From the NCBI GenBank assembly GCA_964479005.1, contig CAYZJA010000002.1:161278-225277 (forward strand): a DNA stretch of 64,000 bases. Reading direction: 5' to 3'. How positions within the stretch are numbered: the stretch's first letter is position 1; each line of letters opens with the position of its first letter. Below are positions 10,209 through 31,521 of this stretch, one piece after another. This stretch comes from an uncultured Candidatus Saccharibacteria bacterium (GTDB lineage Bacteria; Patescibacteriota; Minisyncoccia; UBA6257). The notes beneath the pieces were generated by a model. It made no database searches and was not told the DNA's origin. It saw only the letters and a list, made by a program, of their open reading frames with translations. The translations under genes and the position numbers were made by a program.

Positions 10209-10852
10209 AATCCAAGATTTTCTGACAGAGAGTTCACAAGAGATGACTGAACTTTGAAAACGACTGTCTTTAGTTTGTCTTTTCACTAAAGATGGGAAAG
10301 TTGTATTAAGGGCAGATGGTGGATGCCTTGACACAGTAAGGCGATGAAGGACGCGGCGTAGCTGCGATAAGCCTCGGGAAGGTGCGTAGTAACCTTTGAT
10401 CCGGGGATTTCCGAATGGGGCAACCCATTCCGATTAATATCGGAATATCCTGATTTTAATAATTAGGAGGCGTACCTGGGGAAGTGAAACATCTCAGTAC
10501 CCAGAGGAAAAGAAAACAATAAAATACATTTTACTACTGTTGTTTAGTACTGAATAGTAGCTAAATGTATTTGTGATTCCTTGAGTAGCGGCGAGTGAAA
10601 GAGGAGAAGCCTAAACCAAGCATTCAATTTATTGAGTATTTGGGGTTATAAGGTGGATGCGCGGAAGCTTCGGCTTTCAAAATTTAAATCATAATTAATT
10701 AAATTATCTGGAAAGATAAACCACAGAGGGTGAAAGTCCCGTAGATGAAAATTATTATTGAATTTAGTATCTTTTCTTAATTACCTCGGGGACAGATAAC
10801 CTTGAGGGAAGGATCCGGAACTATACCGGAAAGGCTAAATACTTACTGTGAT

Positions 10853-10898
<46 letters not shown>

Positions 10899-13172: not shown

Positions 13173-13833
13173 AGCGTAATTCCTTGTCGGGTAATTTCCG
13201 ACGTGCATGAAAGGTATAACGACTGGGGAACTGTCTCAACGAGGAGCTCGGTGAAAATGCGTGTCCAGCGAAGACGCTGGGTACCCGCAGCAAGACGAAA
13301 AGACCCTAGAAGCTTTACTACAGCTTGGTATTGAATTTAGTTTTAATCTGCGTAGCGTAGCGGGGAGACTTTGAAGTTTCGCTTTCGGGCGAGATGGAGT
13401 CGCCAATGAAACACCCGTCTTTTTGAAGCTATGTTCTAATCCCGACGGCAAAAACGTCGTGAGACAGTGCCTGGTGGGTAGTTTTCGTGGGGCGCGATCC
13501 TCCTAAAGAGTAACGGAGGAGCCTACTAAGGTTGGCTATCTGCCAATGGAAACGGCAGAGGTAGTGTAAAGGCAAAAGCCAGCTTTATAGTGAGGGAGAC
13601 ATCCCAAACTATTGCGAAAGCAGAGCTTAGTGACCCGATACGTCATTGTAGAATGCGTAGAGACGTCGGATAAAAGCTACTCTAGGGATAACAGGCTGGT
13701 GGAGCCCGAAAGTTCATATCGACGGCTCCGCTCGGCACCTCGATGTCGGCTCATCTTATCCTGGGGCTGAAGAAGGTCCCAAGGGTTTGGCTGTTCGCCA
13801 ATTAAAAAGATACGCGAGCTGGGTTCAGACCGT

Positions 13834-14561
13834 CGATTTGGCGGCCTAGAAGAGTAATCTTCTATGGAAAAAGTTGACTCATATAGATGAAACCCTATTA
13901 CATAAATTGTATTTTAACCTGTCGTGTGGTAGGATAATATCTAGGGAAGTTTAACTTTTTTAAACGTGAAACATCTTTCAAAGACTCAATGTGCTTATAT
14001 CGCTGGGTTTTTAGATGGTGACGGAAGTCTTTATATTAGGATTAAACCTAATAAGGATTATCGGTTTAACTATCAAATAGCCCCCAATATAGTATTTTAT
14101 CAATCCCAAAAAGGATGGTTATTTCTTCAGAAAATTAAAAAAATGATTAGCGCTGGTTATATGAGAAAAAGAAATGACGGGATTGCAGAATATATTATTG
14201 GTGATGTAGCAACAATGTCTTCTTTGTTGAAGCAAATATCTTCATTTCTGATATTTAAAAAGAAACAAGCACAATTGTTTCTAAGAATTCTTCAAAAGAA
14301 AACAAAGGTAAAAACAAAAGAAGATTTTATAGCTTTAGCTATAATGATTGATAAATTGGAAAAATTAAATTATTCCAAAAAAAGGCGCATTACTTCGCAA
14401 GTTGTTATCAACACGTTAAAAAAGTTGTAACCCCTTAGAGACTTGTTCTGGTTTTTACCAGAACGGAATAGAGATTTTTAATCTCTATTAATACGTCAAC
14501 CTCCTAATAAAATATTAGGATGATGGTATAGTCCATACATAAAGTAATTTATGATTATATG
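13834..14561 (+). mobile_element. Group I intron in 23S at the L2593-equivalent site (I-CreI target: ...GACCGU^CGUGAGACAG, in the peptidyl-transferase loop)
   Basis: Exon ...GGGTTCAGACCGT | intron | CGTGAGACAGGTCGG. The junction U/G rule is satisfied with the intron ending ...ATATG. Encloses a LAGLIDADG ORF. Confidence 0.8.
13966..14430 (+). CDS. LAGLIDADG homing endonuclease (I-CreI-like size), encoded in intron 2
   Basis: 154 aa with motif IAGFLDGDGS at residues 11-20. Lies inside a 23S intron at the I-CreI homing site. Confidence 0.8.
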   Translation: MKHLSKTQCAYIAGFLDGDGSLYIRIKPNKDYRFNYQIAPNIVFYQSQKGWLFLQKIKKMISAGYMRKRNDGIAEYIIGDVATMSSLLKQISSFLIFKKKQAQLFLRILQKKTKVKTKEDFIALAIMIDKLEKLNYSKKRRITSQVVINTLKKL

Positions 14562-14703
14562 CGTGAGACAGGTCGGCCTCTATCTGCTGTGGGCGTTCGA
14601 TACTTGAGGAGAGCTGATCGCAGTACGAGAGGACCCGATTGGACGAACCTCTGGTCTACCGGTTGTCCTGCCAAGGGCATCGCCGGGTAGCTATGTTCGG
14701 AAG

Positions 14704-14736
<33 letters not shown>

Positions 14737-14898
14737 CACTCCAAGATTAGGTATCGTTTCCCATTTATGGGAGTGAGATTCCTGGAAGATGACCAGGTTG
14801 ATAGGCTCTAGGTGGAAGTCCAGTAATGGATTAAGCCGAGGAGTACTAATTATCAAAGCAACTTTCCTATCTTTAGTGAAAAGAAATATTTTAAAATT

Positions 14899-15008
14899 CC
14901 GCTGGTGTTTTACTTAATTATGGTCCACCTCTTCCCATTCCGAACAGAGAAGTGAAAGTAATTAAGCCCGATGATACTCTTTTGGGGAAAGTAGGGTATG
15001 CCAGCGGT
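14899..15008 (+). rRNA. rrf: 5S ribosomal RNA
   Basis: Helix I CCGCTGGTG...GCCAGCGG, loop motifs CCGAACAGAGAAGTGAAAG and GGGAAAGTAGGGTATGCC. Sits 38 nt after the 23S 3' end. Confidence 0.85.
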
Positions 15009-17730: not shown

Positions 17731-18741
17731 ATGAAACAAGTGCAATTTATCAAAATCTCATTATTCATCATTGTTTGCGTATTAGTGCTATTTTTTTATA
17801 TATTAGTTAATTTTTCATTAACTTGTCAGGGAGAGTGTAATTTTTCAATAGAGAAAGGAGAAAACTTAAAAAGTATTGCCGATCGTTTAAGAAATCAAAA
17901 ATTTGTTTCTTCATCTATGTTGTTTCAATTTTACGTAAAAATAAAAGGTCAGGAAAAAAACATCAAAGCAGGAGATTATTCATTTATTTCACCTTTAACG
18001 ATTACTAACATAACCGAGATTATTACTAATGGAAAATTAACTAATAATAGTTTCCTCATAGCAGAAGGGGAGACAATGTTAGAGATAGAGGAAAATCTAA
18101 GAGAAAAAGGTCTAATTGATGCATTTTCATCATTAAAAGAATGGAAAACAGGGGATTTTCTTGAAAAAAAATATTTTGATATTTTTTCTGAAATTCCTAC
18201 CGATGTTTCATTAGAAGGGTATTTATTTCCTGATTCTTATCATTTACCCCAGGGATTAGAAGAAGAAGAAATTCTTTCAATGTTTATAGATAATTTTGTC
18301 GCAAAAACTGAAAATGATTTATTTTTTGAGATAAAAGAGCAAAAAAGAAGTTTTTATGAAATTTTAACAATGGCTTCTTTGTTGGAAAAAGAAGTTCGCG
18401 AAGAAACAGACAAAAGAATGGTAGCAGATATTCTTTGGAGGAGATTGGATACGAATTTTCTTCTTCAAGTTGACGCAACAATTTGTTATGCTGAATTTCA
18501 ATCATTTAAAAAATGTTCTCTTACCCGTGAATTATTTAAATTAGATTCTCCTTATAACACTTATCTTTATAAAGGATTACCGCCTACACCTATTAATAAT
18601 CCTGGAATAGAATCAATACAAGCAGCTTTAAATCCATTAGTAAATGATTATTGGTATTATATGACTGACAGAGAAACAGGAAAAACTATTTTTTCTGAAA
18701 CATTTGATGAACACTTAGAATCCCGCGGGAAATATCTATAG
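17731..18741 (+). CDS. mltG: Endolytic murein transglycosylase MltG (YceG family), full length
   Basis: N-terminal TM, KAGDYSF, LTMASLLEKE, LQVDATICYA, SPYNTYLYKGLPPTPINNPG. Confidence 0.85.
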   Translation: MKQVQFIKISLFIIVCVLVLFFYILVNFSLTCQGECNFSIEKGENLKSIADRLRNQKFVSSSMLFQFYVKIKGQEKNIKAGDYSFISPLTITNITEIITNGKLTNNSFLIAEGETMLEIEENLREKGLIDAFSSLKEWKTGDFLEKKYFDIFSEIPTDVSLEGYLFPDSYHLPQGLEEEEILSMFIDNFVAKTENDLFFEIKEQKRSFYEILTMASLLEKEVREETDKRMVADILWRRLDTNFLLQVDATICYAEFQSFKKCSLTRELFKLDSPYNTYLYKGLPPTPINNPGIESIQAALNPLVNDYWYYMTDRETGKTIFSETFDEHLESRGKYL

Positions 18742-18997: not shown

Positions 18998-19483
18998 AAG
19001 CCAGAAAAGCTTATCCCATTGATTATTAAAAATATCTTGGAAGGGAAAAGTTTGCCAGTGTATGGAGATGGAAAGAATGTTAGAGATTGGATTTATGTTG
19101 AAGATCATTGCAAGGCAATAGATTTGGTTTTGGATAAAGGTAAATTAAGTGAAGTATATAATATAGGTGGATGTGATGAAAAACAAAATATAGAAATAGT
19201 TAAAATTCTTATAGACACAATCAAAGATTTGATAAAGAAAAATTCGGAATATCAGTTTATTTTAAAAACTGATTTATCTAATATTAATTATAATTTAATA
19301 GAATATGTAAAAGACAGAAAGGGTCATGATAAAAGATATGCTATAGATTCTACAAAAATAAAAAATGAACTCGGGTGGTTTCCCGAAACAAAATTTGGAG
19401 ATGGTATAGTTAAAACAATTAAATGGTATTTTGAAAATCAAGATTGGGTAGAAAACAAGCACGAGCTCTTCAAAAATATATAA
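18998..19483 (+). pseudogene. 3' fragment (about 160 codons) of a dTDP-glucose 4,6-dehydratase (rfbB) paralogue; a remnant with no N-terminal half
   Basis: The open frame begins right after a stop codon with ...[38 protein letters not shown]..., collinear with residues from about 190 onward of the intact RfbB at 30482-31501 ([38 protein letters not shown]). Apparent TTG start. Confidence 0.7.
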
Positions 19484-19595: not shown

Positions 19596-20744
19596 ATGAA
19601 AATAGGAATATTAACATTTAATTGGGCACTTAATTATGGAGCTGTATTACAAATGTATACATTATATAAGTATTTGAGTAAAAACAATGAGGTTTTTGTT
19701 ATAAATTATGTTCCAGATTACTTAGCTAATCTATATAGTACAAAGATTTTTGATAAACCCTTGAGAATTAAATCAGTAATGGAAAAAATGCTGCAAAAAC
19801 TAATAAAACATAAACAATATAAAAAATTCAAGGAATTTATTGATAAAGATATTACTTTAACAGAAAAGGCTAAAAATAGTGCTGAGTTATTAAAAATAAT
19901 AAACAAACTTGATTTAGTTGCAGTAGGAAGTGACCAAGTTTGGAATTATGATATAACAAAAGACCATTTAAAGGATTATCTTTTAAGTAATATAAATTGT
20001 AACAAGATAAGTTATGCTGCTAGTCTTGGTAAAAATGAAATTAAAAGTGAAGTTGTAGGTTTATTTAAAAAATCTCTAAAAAATTTTGATTTTGTTTCTT
20101 TAAGGGAAGAAGCATCAATAAGTTATCTTAATAAAATTTGTAAAAGAAAAAATTACAAATTGTGTATTGATCCTGTTTTCTTGTTTAAAAAGGAGGAATG
20201 GGAAATCATTGCCGAAAAAAGTTATTGTAAATTGCCGAATAAAGAATATATACTTGTATATATGTTAGAATATAATGCTAATTTAATCAAAGTGGCTAAA
20301 TATTTATCTAAAATATATAATATATCTGTGGTTAGTATAGAAATTCCTTTTTTAACACTTGAAAGAATAACAAAAATGAAAAAAATTAAAAAACTACATG
20401 ATGTAGGGCCAATAGACTTTGTTAAATTATTTTCAAATGCAAAATATATTTTAACAAATTCTTTTCATGGGACAGCTTTTTCATTAATTTTTAATAAGCA
20501 GTTTATTTCGTTTGCTCATTCAACTGTAAATTTAAGGATGGAAAATCTTTTGAAGCTGTATGGTTTAGAAAATAATCAAATAGCTAATTCGTTTAAGGAT
20601 ATTGAAGTTGTTAAAAAAATTTTAGAAAAGAGTAAACAAGCATATAATAACCAAAATAAAGAAATAGATAATGTTATTGAAGTTTCAAAAAAATATTTAG
20701 ATGATGTTGTAAAAGAAATTACAAATAAGAAGGGAAAATTATGA
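19596..20744 (+). CDS. Polysaccharide pyruvyl transferase family protein (CsaB/WcaK-like)
   Basis: N-terminus MKIGILTFNWALNYGAVLQMYTLYKYL is typical of the family (…HxxNYGAxLQxYAL…). 382 aa. Confidence 0.55.
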   Translation: MKIGILTFNWALNYGAVLQMYTLYKYLSKNNEVFVINYVPDYLANLYSTKIFDKPLRIKSVMEKMLQKLIKHKQYKKFKEFIDKDITLTEKAKNSAELLKIINKLDLVAVGSDQVWNYDITKDHLKDYLLSNINCNKISYAASLGKNEIKSEVVGLFKKSLKNFDFVSLREEASISYLNKICKRKNYKLCIDPVFLFKKEEWEIIAEKSYCKLPNKEYILVYMLEYNANLIKVAKYLSKIYNISVVSIEIPFLTLERITKMKKIKKLHDVGPIDFVKLFSNAKYILTNSFHGTAFSLIFNKQFISFAHSTVNLRMENLLKLYGLENNQIANSFKDIEVVKKILEKSKQAYNNQNKEIDNVIEVSKKYLDDVVKEITNKKGKL

Positions 20745-20828
20745 AAAATAATGTTTTTAAAAAAATTAAGCTAAGTTATTTTATATATTACAATTATTTT
20801 TGTCGTAATACTACATGGGGGAAGAATT

Positions 20829-21092
20829 ATGTTATACTGTTATAATAATACAATTTGCGATATAAGTTCTACTGCTAAAATTATATTAAATGGAAATTTA
20901 ATTCTCAATTCCTATAAGCTAAAAAAATCAAAGGCTGAAATGTTACTTAGAATGAAAGAAAATACAAAATTAGTTGTAAATGGAAATTTTTCTTTTTACT
21001 ACAATTGTGATATTAATATTTTTGACGGTGGAAGATTAACAATAGGTTCAGGATATGCTAATTGTGGTACACATTGCCTCTTACCCCATTGA
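20829..21092 (+). pseudogene. Short hexapeptide-repeat (left-handed beta-helix acyltransferase-like) fragment, possibly frameshift-disrupted
   Basis: 87-aa ORF with an isoleucine/glycine hexad pattern (NGNLILNS…VVNGNFSF…GGRLTIGSG). An out-of-frame continuation (PIEEKGLAENKHWNLMK) follows the stop. Confidence 0.3.
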
Positions 21093-21261
21093 GGAAAAAG
21101 GTCTTGCAGAAAACAAGCATTGGAATTTGATGAAGTAGAATACACTCTCAGCTAGCTGGTTAAACCAGACGGAGTAATTGAATATGTGAAAAATACGTTA
21201 TAGTACTCTTTGTTAATTTGGTAAATGAAATAAAATATAATTATGTAATGGTGGTGATATT

Positions 21262-22326
21262 ATGAAAATAATACTTTTAGGTGGTACAGGTGCTATAGGA
21301 AGTCATTTGACAAACCTTTTATCTGATAGAAAAGATAAGGTTGTAGTAACTTCTCGAAGCCGTAATGAATCGAAAGAATTAGTTGAATATCGACAAGGAA
21401 ATGCTAAAAACATAGATTTTTTGAGTGATGTTTTACGGGAACAATGGGATGCAATCGTTGATTTTATGGTCTATTCTGAAGATGAATTTCGTGAACGGGT
21501 AGATTTATTGCTGAGTTCTACATCTCAATATGTTTTCTTAAGTTCAGCTAGAGTTTATAATGAAAGTCAAGAGGCTATAACAGAGGAATCTGCAAGACTA
21601 TTAGATTCTTCTTCTGATTATGATTTTTTAGCTACAAGCGAATATTCTCTTTCAAAAGCTCGACAAGAAAATATGTTACGTTCATCAAATAAGAAAAACT
21701 GGACTATTGTACGTCCGTATATTACGTACAGCGAAAAGCGTTTGCAACTTGGAACTCTAGAAAAAGAAAATTGGCTTTATAGAGCATTACAAGGAAGATC
21801 CATAGTATTTTCTGAAGATATTAGGAACCACTTAACTACTCTAACCTATGGTTTAGATGTGGCAACTGGAATTGCAAGTCTTATCAATAATCCAAAATCT
21901 TTTGGGGAAACATATCATATTACAAACGAATGTGCATGCAAATGGAGCGATATTTTAAACATATATTTAGATGTATTAGAGAATAAATTAGGAAATCGAC
22001 CTAAAGTAATCTACCAAAATTTACCTGATTTTCTAGTGTGGAATCCAGGAAAATACCCAATTATTTATGATCGGCTTTTTGATAGAAAATTTGATAATAC
22101 AAAAATCAATAAATTAATAAACGCAAAAGAATTTGTACAAGTTCAGAATGGATTGAGAAAGAGTTTAAATACGTTTTTAATAAGCCCAGAATTTAGTAGT
22201 ATAAGCTGGAAAAATGAAGCGATAAAAGACAGATACGCTAAAGAAAGAACTCCATTAAAAGAAATCAGTGGCTTTAAGCAAAAAGTTAAATATTTGGCTT
22301 TTAGATATTTCATTAAAATTAAATAG
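21262..22326 (+). CDS. NAD(P)-dependent epimerase/dehydratase (SDR/NmrA-like) family protein
   Basis: N-terminal Rossmann GxxGxxG (MKIILLGGTGAIGSHL). 354 aa. Glycan-cluster context. Confidence 0.55.
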   Translation: MKIILLGGTGAIGSHLTNLLSDRKDKVVVTSRSRNESKELVEYRQGNAKNIDFLSDVLREQWDAIVDFMVYSEDEFRERVDLLLSSTSQYVFLSSARVYNESQEAITEESARLLDSSSDYDFLATSEYSLSKARQENMLRSSNKKNWTIVRPYITYSEKRLQLGTLEKENWLYRALQGRSIVFSEDIRNHLTTLTYGLDVATGIASLINNPKSFGETYHITNECACKWSDILNIYLDVLENKLGNRPKVIYQNLPDFLVWNPGKYPIIYDRLFDRKFDNTKINKLINAKEFVQVQNGLRKSLNTFLISPEFSSISWKNEAIKDRYAKERTPLKEISGFKQKVKYLAFRYFIKIK

Positions 22327-22356
22327 TACAAAATATAAATTTAGAGAGGTAATAAA

Positions 22357-24099
22357 ATGAAAACATATTATACAGACGAAAAAAATATACAGATTTTGAT
22401 TGCATTACTTAAAGGACATGGAATTAGAAAAGTAGTCGCATCTCCTGGAACAGCAAATATGACTTTTGTTAGAAGCCTGCAAAATGATTCTTTTTTTGAA
22501 ATATACTCATCTATTGACGAGCATTCAGCAGCTTATATGGCTTGCGGATTGGCAGCTGAATCAGGAGAACCTGTAGTTTTAAGTTGTACTGGTGCAACTG
22601 CATCAAGAAACTATATGCCGGGATTGACAGAAGCTTACTATCGTAAATTACCAATACTTTCTGTTACAGCTACTCAAGAAATTGCAAAAGTTGGTCATCA
22701 CATTCCTCAGGTTTTAGATCGTAGCTCTATGCCTAATGATGTTGTAAAACACAGTGTTCAACTGCCATTAGTTAAAGATGATACTGATTGGTGGAGTTGT
22801 GAGGTTAAGGTAAATAATGCCCTATTAGAATTAAGTCGGCATGGAGGCGGACCTGTGCACATTAATTTAAGTATGGATTGTAGATTTTCGTTCAAAACTG
22901 TAGAATTACCAAAAGTTCGTGTAATTAAGCGCATTAAAACACAATCAAGTGAGTATCCTTCTATGCCTGAAGGTAAAGTTGCGGTATTTGTTGGATCGCA
23001 TGCAGAAATGACTAAAGATCAAATAAGTGCACTTGAACATTTTTGTGAATCCAATAATGCAGTAGTGTTCTGTGACCACACAAGTGGATACAAAGGGAAA
23101 TATTGTGTTGTTCATTCGCTTAGTTCTTCTCAAAGACTATCGGACTTTGATGGATTACGCCCTGATTTGTTAATTCATATTGGAGAAATTACCGGAGACT
23201 ATTCTGTTAGTAGTATAGTTGGAAAACAGATTTGGAGAGTTAGCGAAGATGGCGAGTTACGAGATACTTATCGTAAACTTCAGTATGTTTTTGAAATGCC
23301 CGAACAAGTTTTTTTTAAACATTATACTAAAAACGATATAAATAGTGGACTTTATTTACAAGTATGTCGTGATTATCTTGAACAATTGCTCAATAAAATA
23401 CCAGAACTTCCATTCTCTAATCTTTGGATAGCAAAAAAAATACATAAGCTAATTCCAGAAAATTCTACTATTCATTTCGCAATTTTAAATAGTCTTCGTT
23501 CATGGAATTTTTTTGAATTACCAAAAACAGTTGAATCTAATTCCAATGTTGGAGGATTCGGAATCGATGGTTGTCTTTCTTCTTTAGTAGGAGCTTCGTT
23601 GGCAAAAAAAGATAGATTATATTTCGGTATCATCGGTGACTTAGCATTCTTTTATGATATAAATTCTATAGGTAATCGTCATGTAGGAAATAATTTACGA
23701 ATTCTTCTAGTCAATAACGGAAAAGGCACAGAATTTAGAAATTTCAATCAGCCAGCGGCACAATTTGGAGAATCAGCAGATGAATTTATAGCAGCCGGAG
23801 GCCATTTTGGAAACAAGTCACAAACCCTAGTAAAAAATTATAGCGAGAGTCTTGGTTTTGAATATTTATCTGCATCAAATAAAGCAGAGTTTGAGCAAGT
23901 CTATGAAAGATTTCTAACTGACCAGATGCTCGATAAACCTATATTATTAGAGGTATTTACAAATAGTGTAGATGAAAGTAAGGCTTTGGAAATGATAACA
24001 TCAATTAGTACAACAGTTAAAATGAAAACGAAAGATGTTATAAGAAATGTTGTAGGTAAGAATAATATTAGAAAAATCAAAAAATTTATTAAAGGTTAA
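22357..24099 (+). CDS. Thiamine-pyrophosphate-dependent enzyme of the acetolactate-synthase/2-ketoacid decarboxylase superfamily (candidate sugar-branching or acyloin-forming enzyme)
   Basis: 580 aa. N-terminal Pyr domain (…SPGTANMTF…EHSAAYMACGLA…) and C-terminal TPP-binding motif IIGDLAFFYDINSIG…NLRILLVNNGKG (GDG…NN). Confidence 0.65.
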   Translation: MKTYYTDEKNIQILIALLKGHGIRKVVASPGTANMTFVRSLQNDSFFEIYSSIDEHSAAYMACGLAAESGEPVVLSCTGATASRNYMPGLTEAYYRKLPILSVTATQEIAKVGHHIPQVLDRSSMPNDVVKHSVQLPLVKDDTDWWSCEVKVNNALLELSRHGGGPVHINLSMDCRFSFKTVELPKVRVIKRIKTQSSEYPSMPEGKVAVFVGSHAEMTKDQISALEHFCESNNAVVFCDHTSGYKGKYCVVHSLSSSQRLSDFDGLRPDLLIHIGEITGDYSVSSIVGKQIWRVSEDGELRDTYRKLQYVFEMPEQVFFKHYTKNDINSGLYLQVCRDYLEQLLNKIPELPFSNLWIAKKIHKLIPENSTIHFAILNSLRSWNFFELPKTVESNSNVGGFGIDGCLSSLVGASLAKKDRLYFGIIGDLAFFYDINSIGNRHVGNNLRILLVNNGKGTEFRNFNQPAAQFGESADEFIAAGGHFGNKSQTLVKNYSESLGFEYLSASNKAEFEQVYERFLTDQMLDKPILLEVFTNSVDESKALEMITSISTTVKMKTKDVIRNVVGKNNIRKIKKFIKG

Positions 24100-24113: not shown

Positions 24114-24431
24114 ATGAAAATACTTACCAAAATTAAATCTATAGGAAAGCACTTGCCTAAACCAATTAAGCATATTATTAGACCTTTCTACATTAAAGTA
24201 AAAGGGAAAGAAAGAATAATAGTATACAAAGAATTACTACAAGATACAGCTGAATTTCACAATAGAATTGATGATTCTAGAATTAATTATCAAGAGCTCG
24301 ATAAAATTGATAGAATACTTAAACAATTAAATCCTTTAGATGTGAGAAATTATATGTATTTAATAGTTTCTCTTTTTGGTTCGAAATGTTATTATAGATT
24401 AAGTAAGTTGAAACATAGTCTAAATAATTAA
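24114..24431 (+). CDS. Hypothetical basic 105-aa protein
   Basis: ORF only; no recognisable motif. Confidence 0.3.
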   Translation: MKILTKIKSIGKHLPKPIKHIIRPFYIKVKGKERIIVYKELLQDTAEFHNRIDDSRINYQELDKIDRILKQLNPLDVRNYMYLIVSLFGSKCYYRLSKLKHSLNN

Positions 24432-24526: not shown

Positions 24527-24730
24527 ATGAATCCACAGCAATTGTACCATAAACAGTATGCCGAGCATGCCTTAATAATTAATCATGAATCTTTTTTCAA
24601 GAAAACCTTTCATAAGTTTAATGTCCATAGAAGAAATGTAGCAATTTCTTTACTAGAGAGAGGAAATAATTTACTTGATATTGGTTGTGGAGAAGGGTCA
24701 CTTTTATTAAAGGCAAGAAATAAATATTAA
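24527..24730 (+). pseudogene. 5' fragment of a class I SAM-dependent methyltransferase, cut off at the mltG-duplication junction
   Basis: 67-aa ORF ending …LLDIGCGEGSLLLKARNKY* (motif I only), abutting the duplicated mltG 3' segment. Confidence 0.5.
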
Positions 24731-25532
24731 AGCGGGGGATTATCGATTTATTTCGCCGCTAACAATTGCCAAAATAACCGAGGCTATTACTAATGGAAAA
24801 TTAAGCAATAATCATAGTTTTCTCATAACAGAAGGGGAAACAATGCTGGAGATAGAGGAAAATTTAAAAGAGAAAGGTTTAATTGACAAATCTGCCTCAT
24901 TAAAAGAATGGAAAATAGGAGATTTTCTTGAGAAAAAACATTTTGATATTTTTTCTCAAATTCCTTCAGATGCTTCATTAGAGGGCTTTTTATTTCCTGA
25001 TTCTTATCATTTACCCCAAGGATTGGAAGAAAAAGAAATTCTTTCAATACTTATTGATAATTTTGTCGCAAAAGCCCGTGGTGAGTTTAGTCAAACCACT
25101 AAAAATGATTTATTTTTTGATATTAAGGAGCAAAAAAGAAGTTTTTATGAAATTTTAATAATAGCTTCTTTGTTGGAAAAAGAAGTTCGTGTAGAGACAG
25201 ATAAAAGAATGGTGGCAGATATTCTTTGGAGGAGATTGGATACAAATTTTCCTCTTCAGGTAGATGCAACAATATGCTATGCAAAATATGAATCATTTAA
25301 AAATTGTTCTCTTACCCGTGAATTATTTAAATTAGATTCTCCGTACAATACTTATATTTATAAAGGATTGCCTCCTACGCCTATTAATAATCCCGGAATA
25401 GAATCAATACAAGCGGCTTTAAATCCATTGGCAAATGATCATTGGTATTATATGACTGACAGAAAAACAGGAAGAACAGTCTTTTCTGAAACATTTGACG
25501 AGCATTTAGAATTTCGCGGAAAATATCTATAA
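24729..25532 (+). pseudogene. 5'-truncated second copy of the mltG 3' portion (about residue 80 to the C-terminus) with no N-terminal TM or start context
   Basis: In-frame translation from 24729 (KAGDYRFISPLTIAKITEAITNGKLSNNHSFLITEGETMLEIEE…SPYNTYIYKGLPPTPINNPG…) is collinear with MltG 17968-18741, with near-identical stretches at the nucleotide level. Confidence 0.7.
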
Positions 25533-25553: not shown

Positions 25554-26639
25554 ATGAAAATTTTTATAATTTTAGGTACTCGTCCAGAGATTATTAAAAT
25601 GTCTCCTGTTATAAGGGAATGTATTAAAAAAAGGCTGAATTTTTCGATTTTGCATACAAATCAGCATTACTCGGAAAATTTGGATAAGGTATTTTTTAAA
25701 GAATTAAATTTACCTCGACCAAAATATAATCTGAATGTTGGTTCTGGAACTCATGCTGAGCAAACAGCGAAAATTCTTGTTGGAGTGGAAAAGATTTTAC
25801 TAAAAGAAAGGCCAGATATTGTTTTAGTTGAGGGCGATACTAATACAGTATTAGCAGGCGCTTTAGCAGCTGCTAAACTTCATATTAAAGTAGGGCATAT
25901 TGAAGCGGGATTGAGGTCTTATTATAGGGAAATGCCAGAAGAAATTAATAGAATTTTAGTTGATCATTGTTCTGATTTGCTTTTTACTCCAACAAAAGAA
26001 ACGAAAGACATACTCTTAAATGAAGGGATTCCTCGTAATAAAATATTTGTTACAGGCAATACTATAATTGACGCTGTTTTTCAGAATCTTAAATTAGCTG
26101 AGAAAAAATCAAAAATATTGGAAAAACTTAATTTATCAAAAAGAGGATATTTTTTAATGACTGCCCATCGCGCAGAGAATGTTGATAATGAAAGTAGGCT
26201 AAGAGGTATTTTAAAAGGTGTTGAGATGACTTCTGAAAAATTTTCTTTGCCTGTAATTTATCCCATTCATCCGAGAACAAGAAAGATGATGAAAAAATTT
26301 AAACTTAAGGTTTCAAATAAGGTTAGATTACTCGAACCAATAGGCTATTTGGATTTTTTAAAACTTGAAAATAGTGCTAAACTAATACTTACTGATTCAG
26401 GGGGAATACAAGAAGAAGCTTGCGCAATGCGAGTTCCTTGCGTAACTTTGAGAGATAATACTGAAAGGCCAGAAACAATAGATGTAGGTAGTAATCTGTT
26501 GTCAGGTGCTAATCCTTTAAGAATCTTAAAATCTGTTTCAAAAATGATGAATAAAAACAGAAAATGGAAAAATCCATTTGGTTCTGGCAAAACAGCGGAA
26601 AAAATAATCAAAATTATCCAGAAAAATGAAAAAGCATAA
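25554..26639 (+). CDS. wecB: UDP-N-acetylglucosamine 2-epimerase (non-hydrolysing)
   Basis: MKIFIILGTRPEIIKMSPV…HTNQHYS…GDTNTVLAGALAA…HIEAGLRS…. Confidence 0.9.
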   Translation: MKIFIILGTRPEIIKMSPVIRECIKKRLNFSILHTNQHYSENLDKVFFKELNLPRPKYNLNVGSGTHAEQTAKILVGVEKILLKERPDIVLVEGDTNTVLAGALAAAKLHIKVGHIEAGLRSYYREMPEEINRILVDHCSDLLFTPTKETKDILLNEGIPRNKIFVTGNTIIDAVFQNLKLAEKKSKILEKLNLSKRGYFLMTAHRAENVDNESRLRGILKGVEMTSEKFSLPVIYPIHPRTRKMMKKFKLKVSNKVRLLEPIGYLDFLKLENSAKLILTDSGGIQEEACAMRVPCVTLRDNTERPETIDVGSNLLSGANPLRILKSVSKMMNKNRKWKNPFGSGKTAEKIIKIIQKNEKA

Positions 26640-26790
26640 GGCAATATGTGTAATAGGCCTTGGTTATATTGGTTTGCCAACTGGCTGTTGTTTAGCTAAA
26701 GCTGGTTATGAAGTAATCGGCTTTTATTTAAATGAAGAGAAAATTAAGACTCTAAAATCGAAATTAAAAATTAACCAAGATGGATCTTAA
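26626..26790 (+). pseudogene. N-terminal remnant (54 codons) of a UDP-ManNAc/UDP-sugar dehydrogenase (wecC-like), truncated where the flippase gene begins
   Basis: MKKHKAICVIGLGYIGLPTGCCLAKAGYEVIGFYLNEEKIKTLKSKLKINQDGS*, the dinucleotide-binding N-terminus of WecC/Ugd. Overlaps the wecB stop and the wzx start. Confidence 0.65.
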
Positions 26791-28261
26791 AGATACAATC
26801 AAAAATATTGTTTTAAACCCAAGCGCTTTTTTTCTTAAAAACTCAGGAACTAAGCAGACTATTGCTAAAAACACTTTTTGGTTGGCAATAGCGGAAGGTA
26901 TATCCAAGTTTTTAAAATTAATTTTAATTATTTATATTGCCCGAATTTTAGGGGCTACTGAATACGGAAAATTCACTTTTGCTTTAGCTTTTGTTTCTTT
27001 ATTTGCCATTTTTTCTGATTTTGGTGTTTCTTCAATCACTACTCGCGAACTTGCCCGGGAAAAAGAGAAAGAAAAAGAATTTCCCAATATTCTTTCTTTA
27101 AAACTCGTTTTGGGTATAGGAGCTTTATTTTTAATTTGTCTTGGTTCTTTTTTTATTACCACTGACCCCTTGATTCGCGCGATAATCTGGATTTTAGGAA
27201 TTTATATTATAGTAAGCAGTTTCTCGGGGATTATTTATGCTTTTCTAAGGGCTTGTCAGCAAATGGAATACGAGGCCTGGACTAAAATTCTACAAGCGAT
27301 GGTTGTAACCGGGGCTGGTTTTTTTGTTCTTTTTAATTTTCCCTCGGTTCAAAGTTTAAGTTTAGCTTATTTGTTTGCCGTCTCAATTGCTTTGATTGCT
27401 ATATTGACTTTTTTTCACTTCAAGATTTATCAACTGAAATTAAGTTTTAATAAAAATATATGGCGAAATGTTTTATTAATGTCTTGGCCTCTGGCTTTAG
27501 CAGGGATATTCGGAACGATTTATAGCCAAACTGATTCGATAATGATGGGTTATTTTGGCCAAATTACCCAAGTTGGTTGGTATAATGCCGCTTATAAAAT
27601 TATCGGAGCAACTTTGATTCCAGTAGGTCTTATCTCCATAAGTTTTTTTCCACTATTTAGTAAATTATTCAAAGAATCAAAAGAAAAACTTCAGAAATCT
27701 TGGGATTATTATATGCAGTTGATGATTTTTTTATCCGTGCCTTTAATAGTAGGAGGTATAGTTTTAGCCCCAAAAATTATTGATTTTGTTTACAATTCAA
27801 GTTATTTTCCATCAATTTTAGCCTTTCAAATTTTACTAATAATGGCAGCACTTTCTTATATTTGCAATCCTTTTGGCCAGGCATTAATTGTTTCAAATCA
27901 GCAAAAAAGACTTTTTTGGATAACTTTATCAGGAGCAATCGTCAATGTTGGGCTAAACTTAATTCTAATTCCAAAATACAGCCTTTATGGAGCAGCTTTC
28001 ACCACAGTTGTTACTTTGTTTTTAATTCTCTTTTTGCTTTACAAATTCACGTCAAAATTTACTCCAATCAAACCATTTAATTTAAAATTTCTTTTTAGTT
28101 TTCTTGGCGCTACTTTTTCTAGTATTCTAATGTATCTTGTAATTTCTCAACCGAATGTTTATAATTTAAATATCTTTCTTTCCATCCTTATAGGAAGTTT
28201 AATCTACTTTTTGTGTTTTTTTCTTCTTAGAAAAATCACAAATTTGCTTAAATTTTTATAA
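26780..28261 (+). CDS. wzx: Wzx-type oligosaccharide flippase (MOP superfamily polysaccharide biosynthesis protein)
   Basis: 493 aa with about 12-14 TM helices. Typical Wzx N-terminal region (…KNTFWLAIAEGISK…ILGATEYGKF…). Confidence 0.75.
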   Translation: MDLKDTIKNIVLNPSAFFLKNSGTKQTIAKNTFWLAIAEGISKFLKLILIIYIARILGATEYGKFTFALAFVSLFAIFSDFGVSSITTRELAREKEKEKEFPNILSLKLVLGIGALFLICLGSFFITTDPLIRAIIWILGIYIIVSSFSGIIYAFLRACQQMEYEAWTKILQAMVVTGAGFFVLFNFPSVQSLSLAYLFAVSIALIAILTFFHFKIYQLKLSFNKNIWRNVLLMSWPLALAGIFGTIYSQTDSIMMGYFGQITQVGWYNAAYKIIGATLIPVGLISISFFPLFSKLFKESKEKLQKSWDYYMQLMIFLSVPLIVGGIVLAPKIIDFVYNSSYFPSILAFQILLIMAALSYICNPFGQALIVSNQQKRLFWITLSGAIVNVGLNLILIPKYSLYGAAFTTVVTLFLILFLLYKFTSKFTPIKPFNLKFLFSFLGATFSSILMYLVISQPNVYNLNIFLSILIGSLIYFLCFFLLRKITNLLKFL

Positions 28262-28326
28262 CATATGAAAAATTTTATATTCAATCAATTTATGGGATAC
28301 CATATAATTATTAATAAAAAAGTAAA

Positions 28327-29064
28327 ATGAAAGGCATAGTTTTAGCAGGTGGCACGGGTTCAAGGTTAAAACCTTTAACAAATGTTACAAACAAGCATCT
28401 TTTACCTGTTGGTAAGTACCCAATGATTTTTTATCCGATTTATCAATTGAAACAATCAGGTATTACGGAAATTCTTATTGTAACTAGTAGAGGACATATG
28501 GGAGACGTTATTGAACTTCTTGGAAGTGGGTATGAATTTGGTGTTCAGTTTACTTTTAAAGTTCAAGATCAAGCAGGAGGAATTGCTCAGGCGCTAGGTT
28601 TAGCAGAGCATTTTGTTGACGGGGATCGTTGCGTTGTTATTCTTGGAGATAATATTTTTGAAAATGATATTACTCCTTTTGTTGAATCATTTGAAAAACA
28701 AGAAAAAGGAGCAAAAATACTTCTAAAAGAAGTTTCAGATCCCCAGAGATTTGGTGTAGCTGAGCTTAGAGATAGAAAAATTATTTTGATTGAAGAAAAA
28801 CCAAAACGACCAAAAAGCAATTTTGCCGTTACTGGTATTTATATGTATGACTCTAAAGTATTTGATATTATTAAAACAATAAAACCTTCGGAAAGAGAGG
28901 AACTTGAAATAACGGATGTAAATAATAATTATATTCAACAAGGCACGTTAACTTATGATATTTTAAAAGGTTGGTGGACTGATGCAGGGACTTCCGAATC
29001 TTTATTTCGAGCAAATGAATTTTGTAAAGATATAATCTTGAATTTTAAAAATGGAAAAGTTTAA
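28327..29064 (+). CDS. rfbA: Glucose-1-phosphate thymidylyltransferase (short form)
   Basis: MKGIVLAGGTGSRLKPLT…KHLLPV…ILGDNIF…. Confidence 0.85.
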   Translation: MKGIVLAGGTGSRLKPLTNVTNKHLLPVGKYPMIFYPIYQLKQSGITEILIVTSRGHMGDVIELLGSGYEFGVQFTFKVQDQAGGIAQALGLAEHFVDGDRCVVILGDNIFENDITPFVESFEKQEKGAKILLKEVSDPQRFGVAELRDRKIILIEEKPKRPKSNFAVTGIYMYDSKVFDIIKTIKPSEREELEITDVNNNYIQQGTLTYDILKGWWTDAGTSESLFRANEFCKDIILNFKNGKV

Positions 29065-29623
29065 AGTAATTAAAACTCCAATTAAAGATCTTGTAATAAT
29101 AGAAACGAAAATATTCAAAGATGATAGGGGATTTTTTATAGAAAGTTATAATTCAAAAGATTTTACTGATATTGGAGTTAATGGTCACTTTGTGCAAGAT
29201 AATCATTCGATGTCAAAAAAAGGAGTTTTGAGAGGGTTACATTTTCAGTTTAAACATTCTCAAGGGAAGCTTGTTCGGGTAATTTCAGGAAAGGTATTTG
29301 ATGTTGCAGTTGATTTAAGGTTAAACTCGTCAACTTTTGGGAAATGGTATGGAGTGGAACTTTCTGGTAATAATGGACTTCAATTTTATATACCTTCTGA
29401 CTTTGCTCACGGTTTTCTTACCCTTCAAGAAAATACACATTTCTTTTATAAATGTACTGATTTTTACTGTCCTGATGATGAATTGGGAATTATATGGGAT
29501 GATAAAGATATAGGTATCCAGTGGCCTTTATCTCAAGTTGAGAAGATTATAATTTCCAAGAAAGACAGTCAGTTACCCCCTTTTAGTGAAGTGAGGAGGA
29601 TATTAGAAAAAGAAAATTCTTGA
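29051..29623 (+). CDS. rfbC: dTDP-4-dehydrorhamnose 3,5-epimerase
   Basis: Cupin fold with RGFFIESYN…RGLHFQ…QGKLVRV…HGF. Confidence 0.9.
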   Translation: MEKFKVIKTPIKDLVIIETKIFKDDRGFFIESYNSKDFTDIGVNGHFVQDNHSMSKKGVLRGLHFQFKHSQGKLVRVISGKVFDVAVDLRLNSSTFGKWYGVELSGNNGLQFYIPSDFAHGFLTLQENTHFFYKCTDFYCPDDELGIIWDDKDIGIQWPLSQVEKIIISKKDSQLPPFSEVRRILEKENS

Positions 29624-30489
29624 AGAAAATTATGAAAGTTTTAATACTTGGTGCAAATGGTCAATTGGGGAGTGAATTTAAGACTTTTTTGAAAGATAAA
29701 GCAGAAGTTTTTGCTTTTAATCATAATGAGCTTGATATCCTTGATTTTAAAGGACTTATCAATAAATTCTTTGAATTATCTCCCGATGTTATCATAAATT
29801 GTGCAGCTTATACTAAAGTTGACCAAGCAGAGGAAGAAGAAAATCTTGCTTATCAAGTAAATGCTGTAGGGGCAAAAAATATTTCCTTTGCTTCTTTTAA
29901 AATCAAGGCAAAAGTTGTTTATTTTAGCACTGATTATGTTTTTGATGGCACTCAAAATTCACCCTATAATGAATTTGACAAGCCCAACCCATTATCTATT
30001 TATGGTAGGTCAAAACTTTTTGGAGAAGAGTTTACAAAACAGTTTAATCCGAACCACTTAATTTTAAGAATTTCCTGGCTTTATGGAATAAATGGTTCAA
30101 ACTTTGTAAAGAGTATTATAAGACTTGCAAAAGAAAAAGGTGAATTAAAAGTTGTGAATGATCAATTTGGGACACCTACCTATACGCTTGATGTAGCAAA
30201 GCAAACTTGGAAACTTATTCAAGATGATAATGTTGGTTTGTATCATTCTTCAAATACTGAGCAAACGACTTGGTTTGAATTTGCAAAAAAGATTGTTGAG
30301 CAACTTAACCTTGATGCAAAAGTCTTTCCGATAAAGACTGATAAGTTTCCAGTATTAGCAAAAAGACCAAGCTTTTCTGTACTGGAGGACTATTTACTTA
30401 AAATTGAAAATAAAAATATAATGCGTTCTTGGGAAGAAGCGTTTAACGATTTCGTAAACAAATATAAAAAGAAACTTATAAATGAATAA
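29620..30489 (+). CDS. rfbD: dTDP-4-dehydrorhamnose reductase
   Basis: MKVLILGANGQLG…CAAYTKVDQAE…YSTDYVFDG…. Confidence 0.9.
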   Translation: MKKIMKVLILGANGQLGSEFKTFLKDKAEVFAFNHNELDILDFKGLINKFFELSPDVIINCAAYTKVDQAEEEENLAYQVNAVGAKNISFASFKIKAKVVYFSTDYVFDGTQNSPYNEFDKPNPLSIYGRSKLFGEEFTKQFNPNHLILRISWLYGINGSNFVKSIIRLAKEKGELKVVNDQFGTPTYTLDVAKQTWKLIQDDNVGLYHSSNTEQTTWFEFAKKIVEQLNLDAKVFPIKTDKFPVLAKRPSFSVLEDYLLKIENKNIMRSWEEAFNDFVNKYKKKLINE

Positions 30490-31501
30490 AACAATTTTAA
30501 TAACAGGTGGAGCAGGTTTTATTGGCTCAAACTTCATCCATTATTTTGTAAAAGAATATCCTGATTACAGAATCGTAAACCTTGATAAGTTGACTTATGC
30601 AGGAAACCTTGAAAATCTAAAAGAAGTTGATGATAATCCGAATTACCATTTTGTAAAAGGGGATATTGTAAACAGGGAACTTGTTGAGTATATATTTGAA
30701 AAGTTTAATCCTTGTTATGTAGTGAATTTTGCTGCAGAATCACATGTTGATAGAAGCATTGAAGGACCAGAGATATTTATAAAATCAAATGTTTATGGCG
30801 CACAAATTTTGCTTGATGTTGCAAAGGAGTTTTGGTTAAAAAACAAAATGTTTGGAGAAACAAGATTTCTTCAAATAAGCACCGACGAAATTTATGGCTC
30901 TTTGCCTTTGGAAAGCACCGCGAAGTTTACTGAGGAATTATCTCTTAAACCAAACAGTCCTTACTCTGCATCAAAGGCCGCAGCCGATTTATTAGTGAAA
31001 TCCTATCATTCAACATATAATATGCCCATATTAATTACTCGTTCCTCTAATAATTTTGGCCCAAGGCAATATCCAGAAAAACTTATTCCTTTAATGATTA
31101 CCAATGCTTTACAAGGAAAACCTTTGCCAGTTTATGGAGATGGTTTGAACGTGAGAGATTGGATATATGTTGAAGATAACTGCGGAGGTATTGATTTAGT
31201 GCTTCATAAAGGAAAAATTGGAGAAATTTATAATATTGGAGGCGGTAATGAAAGGAAAAACATTGACCTTGTAAACTTGATTTGCGAGATGCTTGCCGAA
31301 GTTACAGGAAAACCTGTTGAAGAATATAAAAAATTGATAATTTTCGTGAAAGATAGACCCGGACATGACAGAAGGTATGCATTGAGTATTGAAAAAATGA
31401 AAAGAGAACTGGGATGGAGCCCAACTACAGATTTCAAGAAAGGAATGGAAGAAACCGTTAAGTGGTTTATTGATAAATTTTCAATTGAAAGTAATAATTA
31501 A
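30482..31501 (+). CDS. rfbB: dTDP-glucose 4,6-dehydratase
   Basis: [14 protein letters not shown]…TDEIYGS…YSASKAAAD…[18 protein letters not shown]…. Confidence 0.9.
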   Translation: [339 protein letters not shown]

Positions 31502-31521
31502 TAAAAATTTACAACTTAAAC

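Follow-up and report, generated by a model that had tools for sequence, protein, structure and literature searches.

A MenD-like enzyme, a pyruvyl-transferase homologue and a reductase form a widely shared gene cassette proposed to decorate a surface glycan

Results

The genes examined here lie in a 64,000-nucleotide stretch of DNA from an uncultured Candidatus Saccharibacteria bacterium, referred to as the window, and all three open reading frames are present and intact on the + strand, at the coordinates originally given. The first (19596–20744) encodes a 382-aa protein of the pyruvyl-transferase family, which scored 127.4 bits against the PF04230 model (PS_pyruv_trans, cut-off 25.3) and 24.7 bits against the CsaB equivalog model, for which the cut-off is 213. 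The second (21262–22326) encodes a 354-aa extended SDR (Epimerase, 49 bits) that we propose to be a ketoreductase, and the third (22357–24099) a 580-aa MenD-like ThDP-dependent enzyme, proposed to be an acyl-anion (Stetter-type) C–C ligase. No flippase remnant is present in the 517 bp that separate the transferase and SDR genes; an 87-aa ORF in this gap (20829–21092, + strand) gave no match in Pfam or NCBIfam and is possibly no gene. A 105-aa ORF located 3′ of the ThDP gene (24114–24431, + strand) had no significant family match, and both of these ORFs found matches solely in contigs identical to the window.

The cassette is flanked by two copies of mltG on the + strand. A full-length mltG/yceG (17731–18741; PF02618 242 bits, TIGR00247 219.8 bits) forms the left boundary of the island, and a 5′-truncated copy (24843–25532), which matches positions 85–271 only of the PF02618 profile, forms the right one. 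The two copies share ~90% nucleotide identity across ~800 bp, the homology in the second extending from ~24700 to 25532. Inside the left boundary lies the 3′ fragment of a foreign rmlB (dTDP-glucose 4,6-dehydratase; 19019–19483, + strand), which covers only positions 195–319 of the 321 in TIGR01181 and shares 49% identity with the resident rmlB (30482–31501); this fragment is a remnant brought in with the island. The GC content is 0.22–0.26 at 19–21 kb versus ~0.31 in the surroundings. At the level of sequence, these features uphold the original prediction that the island was acquired and adjoins the rhamnose genes, with the cassette sitting in a foreign insert bounded by the duplicated mltG. 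The resident Wzx-type glycan locus (25554–43995, + strand), which is presumed to provide the acceptor glycan, comprises genes for a UDP-GlcNAc 2-epimerase, Wzx (26780–28261), rmlA/C/D/B (28327–31501), GT2, GT4 and methyltransferase genes and the priming Bac_transf gene (42685–43995).

The ThDP enzyme had originally been described as acetolactate-synthase-like, with YerE-type C-branching as its precedent. It matched TPP_enzyme_N with 69 bits and, weakly, TPP_enzyme_C with 18.7 bits. ALS/AHAS models matched its N-terminal domain only, at ~49 bits, whereas the MenD model TIGR00173 covered residues 10–415 with 166.8 bits, and its nearest relatives by HMM, PDB sequence search and Foldseek were all MenD; neither element of the original description could therefore be retained. 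A search for the central FAD-type domain likewise came out negative, PF00205 giving no match even at E = 10. The enzyme did not group with IlvB or a phosphonate decarboxylase, an outcome that would have refuted the original prediction, but nor did it group with sugar-branching enzymes.

With regard to individual residues, the enzyme retains MenD Glu55 and Gln118, Ile403 (equivalent to MenD Ile418) and the GDL...NN ThDP motif, whereas Arg33 is replaced by Ala, Arg107 by Gln, Asn117 by Pro, and Ec Arg413 (Mtb Arg399) by Val398. Across the family the Arg413 position is an invariant Val and the Asn117 position is Pro or Ala, while the equivalent of Arg395 (Arg381) is kept and invariant. In MenD, Arg107 binds the isochorismate carboxylate (PMC6618250), and Arg399 of Mtb MenD has been described as ‘critical for alpha-ketoglutarate recognition’ (bioRxiv 10.1101/841569). 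The replacement of these substrate-binding residues speaks against both 2-oxoglutarate and isochorismate and favours a smaller donor. An AlphaFold model of the enzyme (pLDDT 59) was too poor for inspection of the pocket. Many family members are named ‘SEPHCHC synthase’ in NCBI and JGI records and MenD is the best match by both HMM and structure, as would be expected of a genuine MenD of menaquinone biosynthesis. We give this assignment practically no credence, however, since the TIGR00173 score falls under the equivalog cut-off of 244.2, Arg33, Arg107, Asn117 and Arg413 are all replaced, the gene invariably lies in glycan loci and has no men genes alongside, and its presence at the O-antigen locus of Providencia differs between strains. 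Judged by its sequence, the enzyme is related to MenD, yet is not MenD.

Gene neighbourhoods were compared for 80 ThDP loci from 80 species of many phyla, in which the ThDP enzyme is located in glycan loci. A reductase adjoins the ThDP gene in 68 of these loci. A PF04230 homologue was found no further than 3 kb away in 60 of them, and in 39 it is the immediate neighbour and has the same orientation. In 50 loci the flanking sequence extends for at least 3 kb to either side; of these, 45 contain the reductase and 41 the transferase, 36 contain both, and every one contains at least one of the two. In this set, ~18% are without a PF04230 gene within 3 kb and 10% without an adjoining reductase. No fourth conserved partner (e.g. 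a kinase or nucleotidyltransferase) was found among the neighbours, nor did an NDP-sugar 4,6-dehydratase co-occur consistently or another plausible attachment enzyme recur there. The transferase and the ThDP enzyme are fused as a single ORF in three loci (L069, L070 and L078), and a classical SDR and the transferase in another (L080). Synteny across phyla combined with these fusions shows that the grouping is functional and not due to chance. The original claim that the three genes belong together is supported, as is the suggestion that the surface glycan bears a non-standard decoration. The three genes are a widely shared, uncharacterised cassette.

The ThDP enzyme has homologues of at least 64% identity across phyla, and the lengths of the proteins elsewhere are 360–390 aa for the transferase, 351–362 aa for the SDR and 579–582 aa for the ThDP enzyme. 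Identity to the window proteins is 56–80% for the ThDP enzyme and 51–79% for the SDR but only 21–37% for the transferase; within Providencia alone, the respective values are 86–94%, 79–91% and 37–87%. A conserved ThDP enzyme and SDR together with a divergent transferase would be expected if a common small moiety were attached to a variable acceptor sugar. It is also conceivable that the transferase is an ordinary pyruvate-ketal enzyme, that the SDR and the ThDP enzyme supply the glycan with another decoration or a precursor of their own, and that the genes travel together only through joint selection for both decorations. The PF04230 enzymes characterised to date form pyruvate ketals (PMC6801904), and some loci have the ThDP–reductase pair with no transferase within 3 kb. 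We nevertheless consider this arrangement unlikely given the direct, same-strand adjacency of the transferase gene in nearly half of the loci, the absence of a recurring alternative attachment enzyme, and the four transferase fusions, which it can hardly explain. The three fusions with the ThDP enzyme place the transferase in the same pathway, and not in a separate pyruvylation step.

The SDR of the window carries the motifs GGTGAIG, Ser94/95 and Y128xxxK132, and inspection of its translation showed the dehydratase TDE motif to be absent. In the window, as in 33 of the 80 loci, the gene immediately upstream of the ThDP gene encodes an extended SDR; the slot is otherwise filled by a classical SDR of ~280 aa (37 loci) or by an aldo-keto reductase (one locus), and the three types are almost mutually exclusive. 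The sole property that they share is NAD(P)H-dependent carbonyl reduction. Such non-orthologous replacement fits a ketoreductase acting on the product of the ThDP enzyme and does not fit an enzyme with the role of NDP-sugar epimerase or dehydratase. ThDP enzymes are able to branch nucleotide sugars, YerE being an example, and rml genes are close by in the window; the ThDP enzyme might then place a two-carbon branch from pyruvate on an NDP-4-keto sugar, with the SDR as sugar epimerase or reductase and pyruvylation taking place separately. This scheme appears highly doubtful to us, as the enzyme is MenD-like rather than ALS/YerE-like and is without the signature of a central FAD-type domain, a classical SDR or aldo-keto reductase occupies the reductase slot in about half of the loci, neither an NDP-sugar 4,6-dehydratase nor a nucleotidyltransferase is consistently present, and the transferase fusions are left unexplained.

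According to Shashkov et al. 2008, as cited in PMC10609480, 2-ethers of 2,4-dihydroxypentanoic acid occur in O-antigens of Providencia alcalifaciens. Occurrence of the module in Providencia was predicted from these ethers and then searched for: P. alcalifaciens was the second-best match (84% identity), and P. rustigianii, P. rettgeri and other Providencia were matched by the same search. In four different Providencia clusters the order wzx–SDR–ThDP–transferase is found directly downstream of cpxA, at the O-antigen locus, where presence of the module varies between strains. None of the four obviously fits the sugar composition (Man, Gal, GalNAc) of P. alcalifaciens O31, one of the serogroups with 2,4-dihydroxypentanoic acid, and the link to this acid is a species-level correlation only.

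Discussion

The cassette most likely appends an extended hydroxy-acid side group to a cell-surface polysaccharide. More specifically, we propose that the module equips a sugar of the adjacent Wzx-dependent glycan with a carboxy-hydroxyalkyl ether, the product being neither a pyruvate ketal nor a C-branched sugar, and we give this proposal roughly an even chance of being correct. We infer the following substrates, reaction sequence and product. The PF04230 enzyme, proposed to be PEP-dependent, would transfer an enolpyruvyl-type C3 unit to the hydroxyl of a sugar, with the ether at C2. The MenD-like enzyme would then decarboxylate a small 2-oxo acid, most likely pyruvate, and the acyl anion (acetyl from pyruvate) would undergo a Stetter-type 1,4-addition at C3 of the α,β-unsaturated carboxylate to give a 2-O-linked 4-oxo acid; alternatively, PEP itself could be the acceptor, prior to transfer. 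Finally, the SDR would reduce the 4-oxo group. With pyruvate as donor this would yield the 2,4-dihydroxypentanoic acid 2-ether, sugar-O-CH(COOH)-CH2-CH(OH)-CH3. For the PF04230 family, it would be new chemistry either to stop at the enol ether or to displace phosphate at an sp3 carbon.

The preference for pyruvate (or another 2-oxo acid) is drawn only from the lost MenD residues. Under the same module logic, 2-oxoglutarate or another 2-oxo acid could serve as donor and give a C7 group (2,4-dihydroxyheptanedioic acid, to which reduction of the megapolipeptin moiety discussed below would lead) or another hydroxy-acid ether. The closest relatives of the ThDP enzyme all use 2-oxoglutarate, the megapolipeptin moiety is C7, and Arg381 is invariant in the family; with an invariant Val at the Arg413/Arg399 position and Pro or Ala at Asn117, however, we regard this variant as quite improbable. 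A search of the literature gave no glycan with a C7 ether, whereas the C5 ether has been described from Providencia, a genus that carries the module. Overall, the interpretation in the original prediction is partly supported.

Among known systems, YerE, the yersiniose branching enzyme, is likewise a ThDP enzyme of a glycan locus with a 2-oxo acid donor, but it belongs to the ALS/FAD-binding lineage and performs a 1,2-addition to a keto sugar; the ALS similarity of the window enzyme is confined to the N-terminal domain, with no PF00205 signature. MenD (SEPHCHC synthase) shares its three-domain fold family with the window enzyme and, likely, its chemistry, in which a 2-oxo acid is decarboxylated and 1,4-addition to an α,β-unsaturated carboxylate ensues. 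The residues for isochorismate (Arg33, Arg107) and for 2-oxoglutarate (Asn117, Arg413/Mtb Arg399) are replaced in the window enzyme, however, and its companions are a reductase and a PF04230 enzyme in glycan loci, not men genes. The ketal pyruvyl transferases CsaB, WcfO and Pvg1p resemble the window transferase, which is a clear PF04230 member, is encoded at a Wzx-type glycan locus and is probably a user of PEP. It is, however, no CsaB equivalog, and at the position presumed to correspond to Arg337-Leu338-His339 of Pvg1p it has Ser-Phe-His. The window transferase also differs in its genetic coupling, in the family sometimes as a fusion, to a ThDP enzyme and a reductase; simple ketal transfer would need neither.

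The megapolipeptin cluster of Paraburkholderia megapolitana contains, as the pair MgpK/MgpL, a PF04230 homologue and a ‘SEPHCHC synthase’, and its product bears 2-hydroxy-4-oxoheptanedioic acid attached by an ether bond at C2 (PMC11411415, PMC13291983). We propose this pair as a chemical precedent for the cassette: each would place a C2-ether-linked 4-oxo acid, with a skeleton of PEP-derived C1–C3 plus an acyl group, on a hydroxyl. The role of the pair is itself a proposal, and it is likened to that of the window by description, not by sequence. The megapolipeptin moiety is C7, from a succinyl donor, with the ketone kept, on a lipid hydroxyl of a PKS/NRPS product, whereas the window product is proposed to be C5, reduced and borne on a sugar. 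MurA/MurB, although from unrelated protein families, offer a further likeness, in that a PEP-derived enolpyruvyl ether on a sugar hydroxyl is attacked at C3 by a nucleophile to give a 1-carboxyalkyl ether. The nucleophile is hydride in MurB and would be an acyl anion in the window cassette, where C–C bond formation and later ketoreduction would lead to a C5 ether in place of the C3 (lactyl) ether of MurA/MurB.

Genomic setting of the three-gene cassette

Three intact ORFs lying on the same strand were found where the original prediction had placed them. They encode a PF04230 pyruvyl-transferase-family protein of 382 aa (19596–20744), an extended SDR of 354 aa (21262–22326) and a ThDP-dependent enzyme of 580 aa (22357–24099), the last of which matched TPP_enzyme_N at 69 bits and TPP_enzyme_C weakly and contains the GDL...NN motif. 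The prediction had also described these genes as belonging to an acquired island, and the setting agreed with this. The cassette lies between a full-length mltG gene on the left (17731–18741) and a second, 5′-truncated copy on the right (about 24700–25532), the two copies sharing ~90% nucleotide identity over ~800 bp. Inside the island, close to its left edge, an rmlB gene is represented by its 3′ third, which has 49% identity to the resident rmlB, and the GC content there falls to 0.22–0.26 against ~31% for the window. The cassette is therefore part of a foreign insert. Metagenome contigs coding for the same proteins showed the same arrangement as the window. A flippase remnant was sought between the transferase and SDR genes, as were remnants after the ThDP gene, and none was found, the upstream rmlB fragment being the only one matched.

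A resident Wzx-type glycan locus lies downstream of the island and runs from a UDP-GlcNAc 2-epimerase gene to a priming transferase gene (42685–43995). At 31522–32535, a 337-aa ORF combines a GT2-like glycosyltransferase (residues 4–206) with a C-terminal SAM-methyltransferase (residues 244–331). The glycan locus at 39677–42666 includes a 183-aa UbiA-family ORF matching profile positions 25–155 of 250 alone, together with a PgpA phosphatase and a 654-aa heparinase II/III-like protein, a combination of genes that is unusual in such a locus.

The rRNA genes of the window were also examined. The 23S rRNA match (10296–15007 region) spans 3569 nt compared with 2925 nt for the model, and a 163-aa LAGLIDADG homing-endonuclease ORF (12542–13033, 86.9 bits) lies within it. 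Between this match and the 5S gene lie a second LAGLIDADG ORF (13966–14430) and, below threshold, a match to a group I intron (14440–14554, 32 bits). Introns and endonucleases in rRNA genes are uncommon in bacteria. Two tRNA genes (8918–9077) precede the 23S and 5S genes with no 16S gene upstream of them within the window, and a 16S gene begins only at the far end (63676–64000), after four tRNA genes (61998–62685), which points to rRNA genes that are unlinked or arranged in an unusual operon. From 10 to 62 kb, the plus strand encodes nearly all ORFs of at least 80 aa, and the cumulative GC skew climbs steadily across the window.

The ThDP enzyme is related to MenD

The 580-aa protein had been regarded as acetolactate-synthase (ALS)-like and as a candidate for YerE-type C-branching of a sugar, an assignment that was not borne out. 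NCBIfam searches ranked MenD (TIGR00173) first, with E = 9.5e-49 over residues 10–415, and MenD proteins of five species came first in PDB sequence and profile searches. ALS models matched the N-terminal domain alone (residues ~11–190) with at most 49 bits, and the central TPP_enzyme_M domain (FAD/ADP-binding, PF00205) gave no match even at E = 10. On these grounds the ALS/AHAS–YerE lineage was rejected. Phosphonopyruvate and sulfopyruvate decarboxylases, with which comparison had also been suggested, were absent from the best 25 of 37 NCBIfam matches and from the PDB matches. Lastly, a Foldseek search was carried out with an AlphaFold2 model derived from an input of 12 close homologues (pLDDT 59, pTM 0.41) and returned 37 MenD chains, with TM-scores of ~0.28, ahead of the first AHAS at rank 38. 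For a model of such low confidence, this ranking gives weak support to kinship with MenD.

Whether the protein could be a genuine MenD was considered in turn. Its score against the TIGR00173 equivalog was 166.8 bits, below the cut-off of 244.2, and its residues were compared with those of MenD through alignments to the E. coli, B. subtilis, Listeria, S. aureus and M. tuberculosis enzymes. Arg33 and Arg107 of MenD serve in isochorismate binding, Arg107 being kept in >94% of MenDs (PMC6618250), and Asn117 and Arg399 in alpha-ketoglutarate recognition (bioRxiv 10.1101/841569). The window enzyme has Ala33 and Gln107 at the first two positions, Gln107 being nearly invariant across the family alignment. 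Asn117 is replaced by Pro117 (Ala in the family consensus), and M. tuberculosis Arg399, equivalent to E. coli Arg413 in SNRGxxGIDG, is replaced by Val398 in SNVGGFGIDG, a residue that is invariant in the family. The ThDP core is kept, with Glu55 (DEHSA), Gln118 and G427-D-L...N453-N454 all invariant in the same alignment. Arg84, His114 and Arg381 are among further Arg and His residues that do not vary in the family. Since this core is retained and the MenD substrate residues are replaced, the enzyme should, as judged from its residues, be catalytically competent and act on substrates other than those of MenD. The sub-cut-off score, the replaced substrate residues and the glycan-gene neighbours described below led us to reject a genuine MenD.

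The transferase and the reductase

The 382-aa protein matched PF04230 at 127.4 bits (cut-off 25.3) over profile positions 1–279 of 280. It scored 24.7 bits against the CsaB equivalog TIGR03609, for which the cut-off is 213.1, and is therefore not a CsaB. A PDB sequence search with the transferase gave nothing at E < 0.1. In Pvg1p the PEP-contacting Arg-x-His is Arg337-Leu338-His339 (PMC6801904). The window transferase and most module-linked homologues have T-[DN]-S-F-H-G, in which, to judge from the motif itself, the His would be kept and the Arg replaced by Ser. Ser-Phe-His was also considered as a signature of module-linked transferases and was dropped, as it occurs in a second transferase >5 kb from the ThDP gene and there was no background set of unlinked transferases.

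The SDR carries the motifs G7-G-T-G-A-I-G, S94/S95 and Y128-S-L-S-K132 and matched PF01370 at 49 bits. Its best PDB match was weak (E = 3.6e-6), and its best NCBIfam matches, at ~27 bits, covered the N-terminal part alone. An RmlB-type NDP-sugar 4,6-dehydratase was ruled out, given that the protein reads LSSARVY where dehydratases have Thr-Asp-Glu, so that the TDE motif is absent, and that it showed no equivalog-level match.

A conserved module in glycan loci

The best 120 database matches to the ThDP enzyme each shared 64% identity or more with the window protein and came from Bacillota, Bacteroidota, Campylobacterota, Cloacimonadota and other phyla. In Defluviitalea, Sulfurimonas and Emticicia a window-type SDR gene lies immediately 5′ of the ThDP gene, and the pair is adjoined by genes for a PF04230 protein and a flippase in Wzx/Wzy loci. 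A one-genome-per-species scan yielded at least 589 confirmed matches to the ThDP enzyme, among which 80 loci were analysed using our own ORF calls and iterative HMMs. In 60 of these loci a PF04230 ORF lay no more than 3 kb from the ThDP gene, and in 39 it was directly adjacent and on the same strand. The window-type extended SDR occupied the reductase slot in 33 of the 80, a classical SDR of ~280 aa directly adjoined the ThDP gene in 37 others and an aldo-keto reductase did so in one, the extended and classical SDRs being almost mutually exclusive. In locus L052, a 113-aa fragment of an extended SDR (4890–5201) is accompanied by a complete classical SDR 422 bp from the ThDP gene, which looks like a reductase replacement caught midway.

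A nearby transferase or reductase was missing from some of the 80 loci. Of the 50 loci flanked on either side by 3 kb of sequence or more, 45 carried a reductase and 41 a transferase; 36 carried both, and every locus had at least one of the two. An alternative transferase was sought in loci without a nearby one, and the genes found downstream were housekeeping genes (cardiolipin synthase, IspE, GroEL, MutL), which places the module at the border of its glycan locus in several transferase-less cases. Apart from flippases and glycosyltransferases, no other recurring family was found among the neighbours in the 80 loci. The ThDP gene has glycan genes as neighbours in the window and in every locus inspected, and linkage to menaquinone genes was not seen.

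Gene fusions were observed as well. The transferase and ThDP enzyme form a single ORF in three rumen Clostridia MAGs (L069, 8612–11653; L070, 8066–11650; L078, 8519–11656), and in an Akkermansia MAG (L080, 11635–13767) a classical SDR and the transferase form one 710-aa ORF adjoining the ThDP gene. An Oscillospiraceae MAG (L059) has tandem copies of the MenD-like gene (8054–9979 and 10001–11740). Taken together, we are highly confident that the three genes constitute one functional module, built around a ThDP ligase that is derived from MenD without being one and whose keto product is reduced.

The original prediction had named the SDR as an epimerase/dehydratase. That three unrelated NAD(P)H-dependent carbonyl reductases fill one slot argues instead for a ketoreductase, and the protein is best read as one acting on the product of the ThDP enzyme. 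Identity to the window proteins is 56–80% for the ThDP enzyme, 51–79% for the reductase and 21–37% for the transferase; within Providencia the corresponding values are 86–94%, 79–91% and 37–87%. This gap in conservation fits a division of labour in which the ThDP enzyme and the reductase handle an invariant small moiety and the transferase reads a variable acceptor sugar.

Proposed chemistry

MenD first decarboxylates a 2-oxo acid and then carries out a Stetter-type 1,4-addition to an alpha,beta-unsaturated carboxylate. Acceptors of this kind include PEP and enolpyruvyl ethers, and MurB, which delivers hydride to C3 of an enolpyruvyl ether, provides an enzymatic precedent for a nucleophile at that carbon. 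We propose that the acyl anion formed by the ThDP enzyme would add to C3 of a PEP-derived unit, the C2 oxygen of which is, or becomes, the sugar oxygen. The acceptor could be either free PEP or a sugar-bound enol ether, and the addition product would be a 2-O-linked 4-oxo acid, from which ketoreduction would yield a 2-O-linked 4-hydroxy acid. A small donor is favoured because both 2-oxoglutarate-recognition residues are lost, and with pyruvate as donor the final product would be a 2,4-dihydroxypentanoic acid 2-ether. We consider the chances of the product class being a 2,4-dihydroxypentanoic-type ether to be about even. The wider proposal is put forward more tentatively, at slightly below an even chance: a widespread, horizontally mobile hydroxy-acid ether cassette, in which a MenD-derived ThDP enzyme performs Stetter-type ligation on a PEP-derived enolpyruvyl unit for or on a glycan, and which is the source of the ethers of 2,4-dihydroxypentanoic acid in Providencia O-antigens. 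The general idea of the original prediction, that an acquired island encodes a non-standard decoration of the glycan, is supported; its YerE-type branching mechanism is not.

If this proposal is correct, formation of an ether rather than a ketal would be new chemistry for PF04230 and would widen what is known of the family, and the module would be the first in which a ThDP enzyme lengthens the carbon chain of a glycan substituent. ThDP enzymes of the Stetter type are rare, and there is demand for them as biocatalysts. Several hundred species, among them gut Bacteroidales, Akkermansia, Collinsella, Vibrio and Aeromonas, would also carry such ethers unnoticed on their surface glycans, and an identical or related acidic side group would be widespread among bacteria of gut, oral and marine habitats, with consequences for serotyping, for phage and antibody recognition and for the prediction of glycan structures from genomes.

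Annotation of the family

Many members of the ThDP-enzyme family are named '2-succinyl-5-enolpyruvyl-6-hydroxy-3-cyclohexene-1-carboxylate synthase' by NCBI/JGI, among them the database matches P0004, P0013, P0043, P0078, P0088, P0121, P0122 and P0126. For a family found in glycan loci, this naming looks like systematic misannotation; given the glycan-locus setting and the loss of the MenD substrate residues, menaquinone calls resting on its members would be wrong. Literature searches pairing MenD, SEPHCHC or thiamine with pyruvyl transferase, O-antigen or capsule turned up no paper in which the module is given a glycan function, and a paper on Proteus O-antigens made no mention of its genes.

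Comparison with Providencia O-antigens and megapolipeptin

Ethers of the proposed type are documented in Providencia. According to Shashkov et al. 2008, as cited in PMC10609480, 2,4-dihydroxypentanoic acid 2-ethers are non-sugar components of Providencia alcalifaciens O-antigens, the beta-D-Man4OR residue of O31 being an example. No genes for these ethers were found assigned in the searchable literature, and our proposal offers them a testable gene-level origin. Providencia was predicted beforehand to carry the module, and a subsequent homologue search found it there. A search with the homologue from Shewanella hanedai placed a P. alcalifaciens protein second (84% identity), and further matches came from P. 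alcalifaciens, P. rustigianii, P. rettgeri, other Providencia, Vibrio, Aeromonas and Acinetobacter; a blastn search of E. coli genomes with the Shewanella homologue gave no match. Four different Providencia clusters carry wzx and the genes for the SDR (360 aa), the ThDP enzyme (582 aa) and the transferase directly downstream of cpxA, and the Providencia cluster L098 terminates at a SpoU-methylase gene. In Providencia, O-antigen clusters lie between cpxA and yibK. None of the four clusters clearly fitted the composition of O31 (Man/Gal/GalNAc), and the link between module and ether is accordingly one at the species level only.

A second parallel comes from the megapolipeptin cluster, which encodes the PF04230 homologue MgpK and a 'SEPHCHC synthase', MgpL (PMC11411415, PMC13291983, PMC12964715). 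Megapolipeptin carries 2-hydroxy-4-oxoheptanedioic acid attached through a C2 ether to a lipid hydroxyl, and MgpK and MgpL were proposed by the authors to build this acid moiety (same references). As compared by their published description, the same type of pair, a PF04230 protein with a MenD-like enzyme, is present in the window and in 60 of the 80 loci, and is fused in three. The megapolipeptin moiety differs from our proposed product in being a C7 and unreduced analogue. The megapolipeptin cluster and the Providencia O-antigens thus form two independent lines that fit the ether model.
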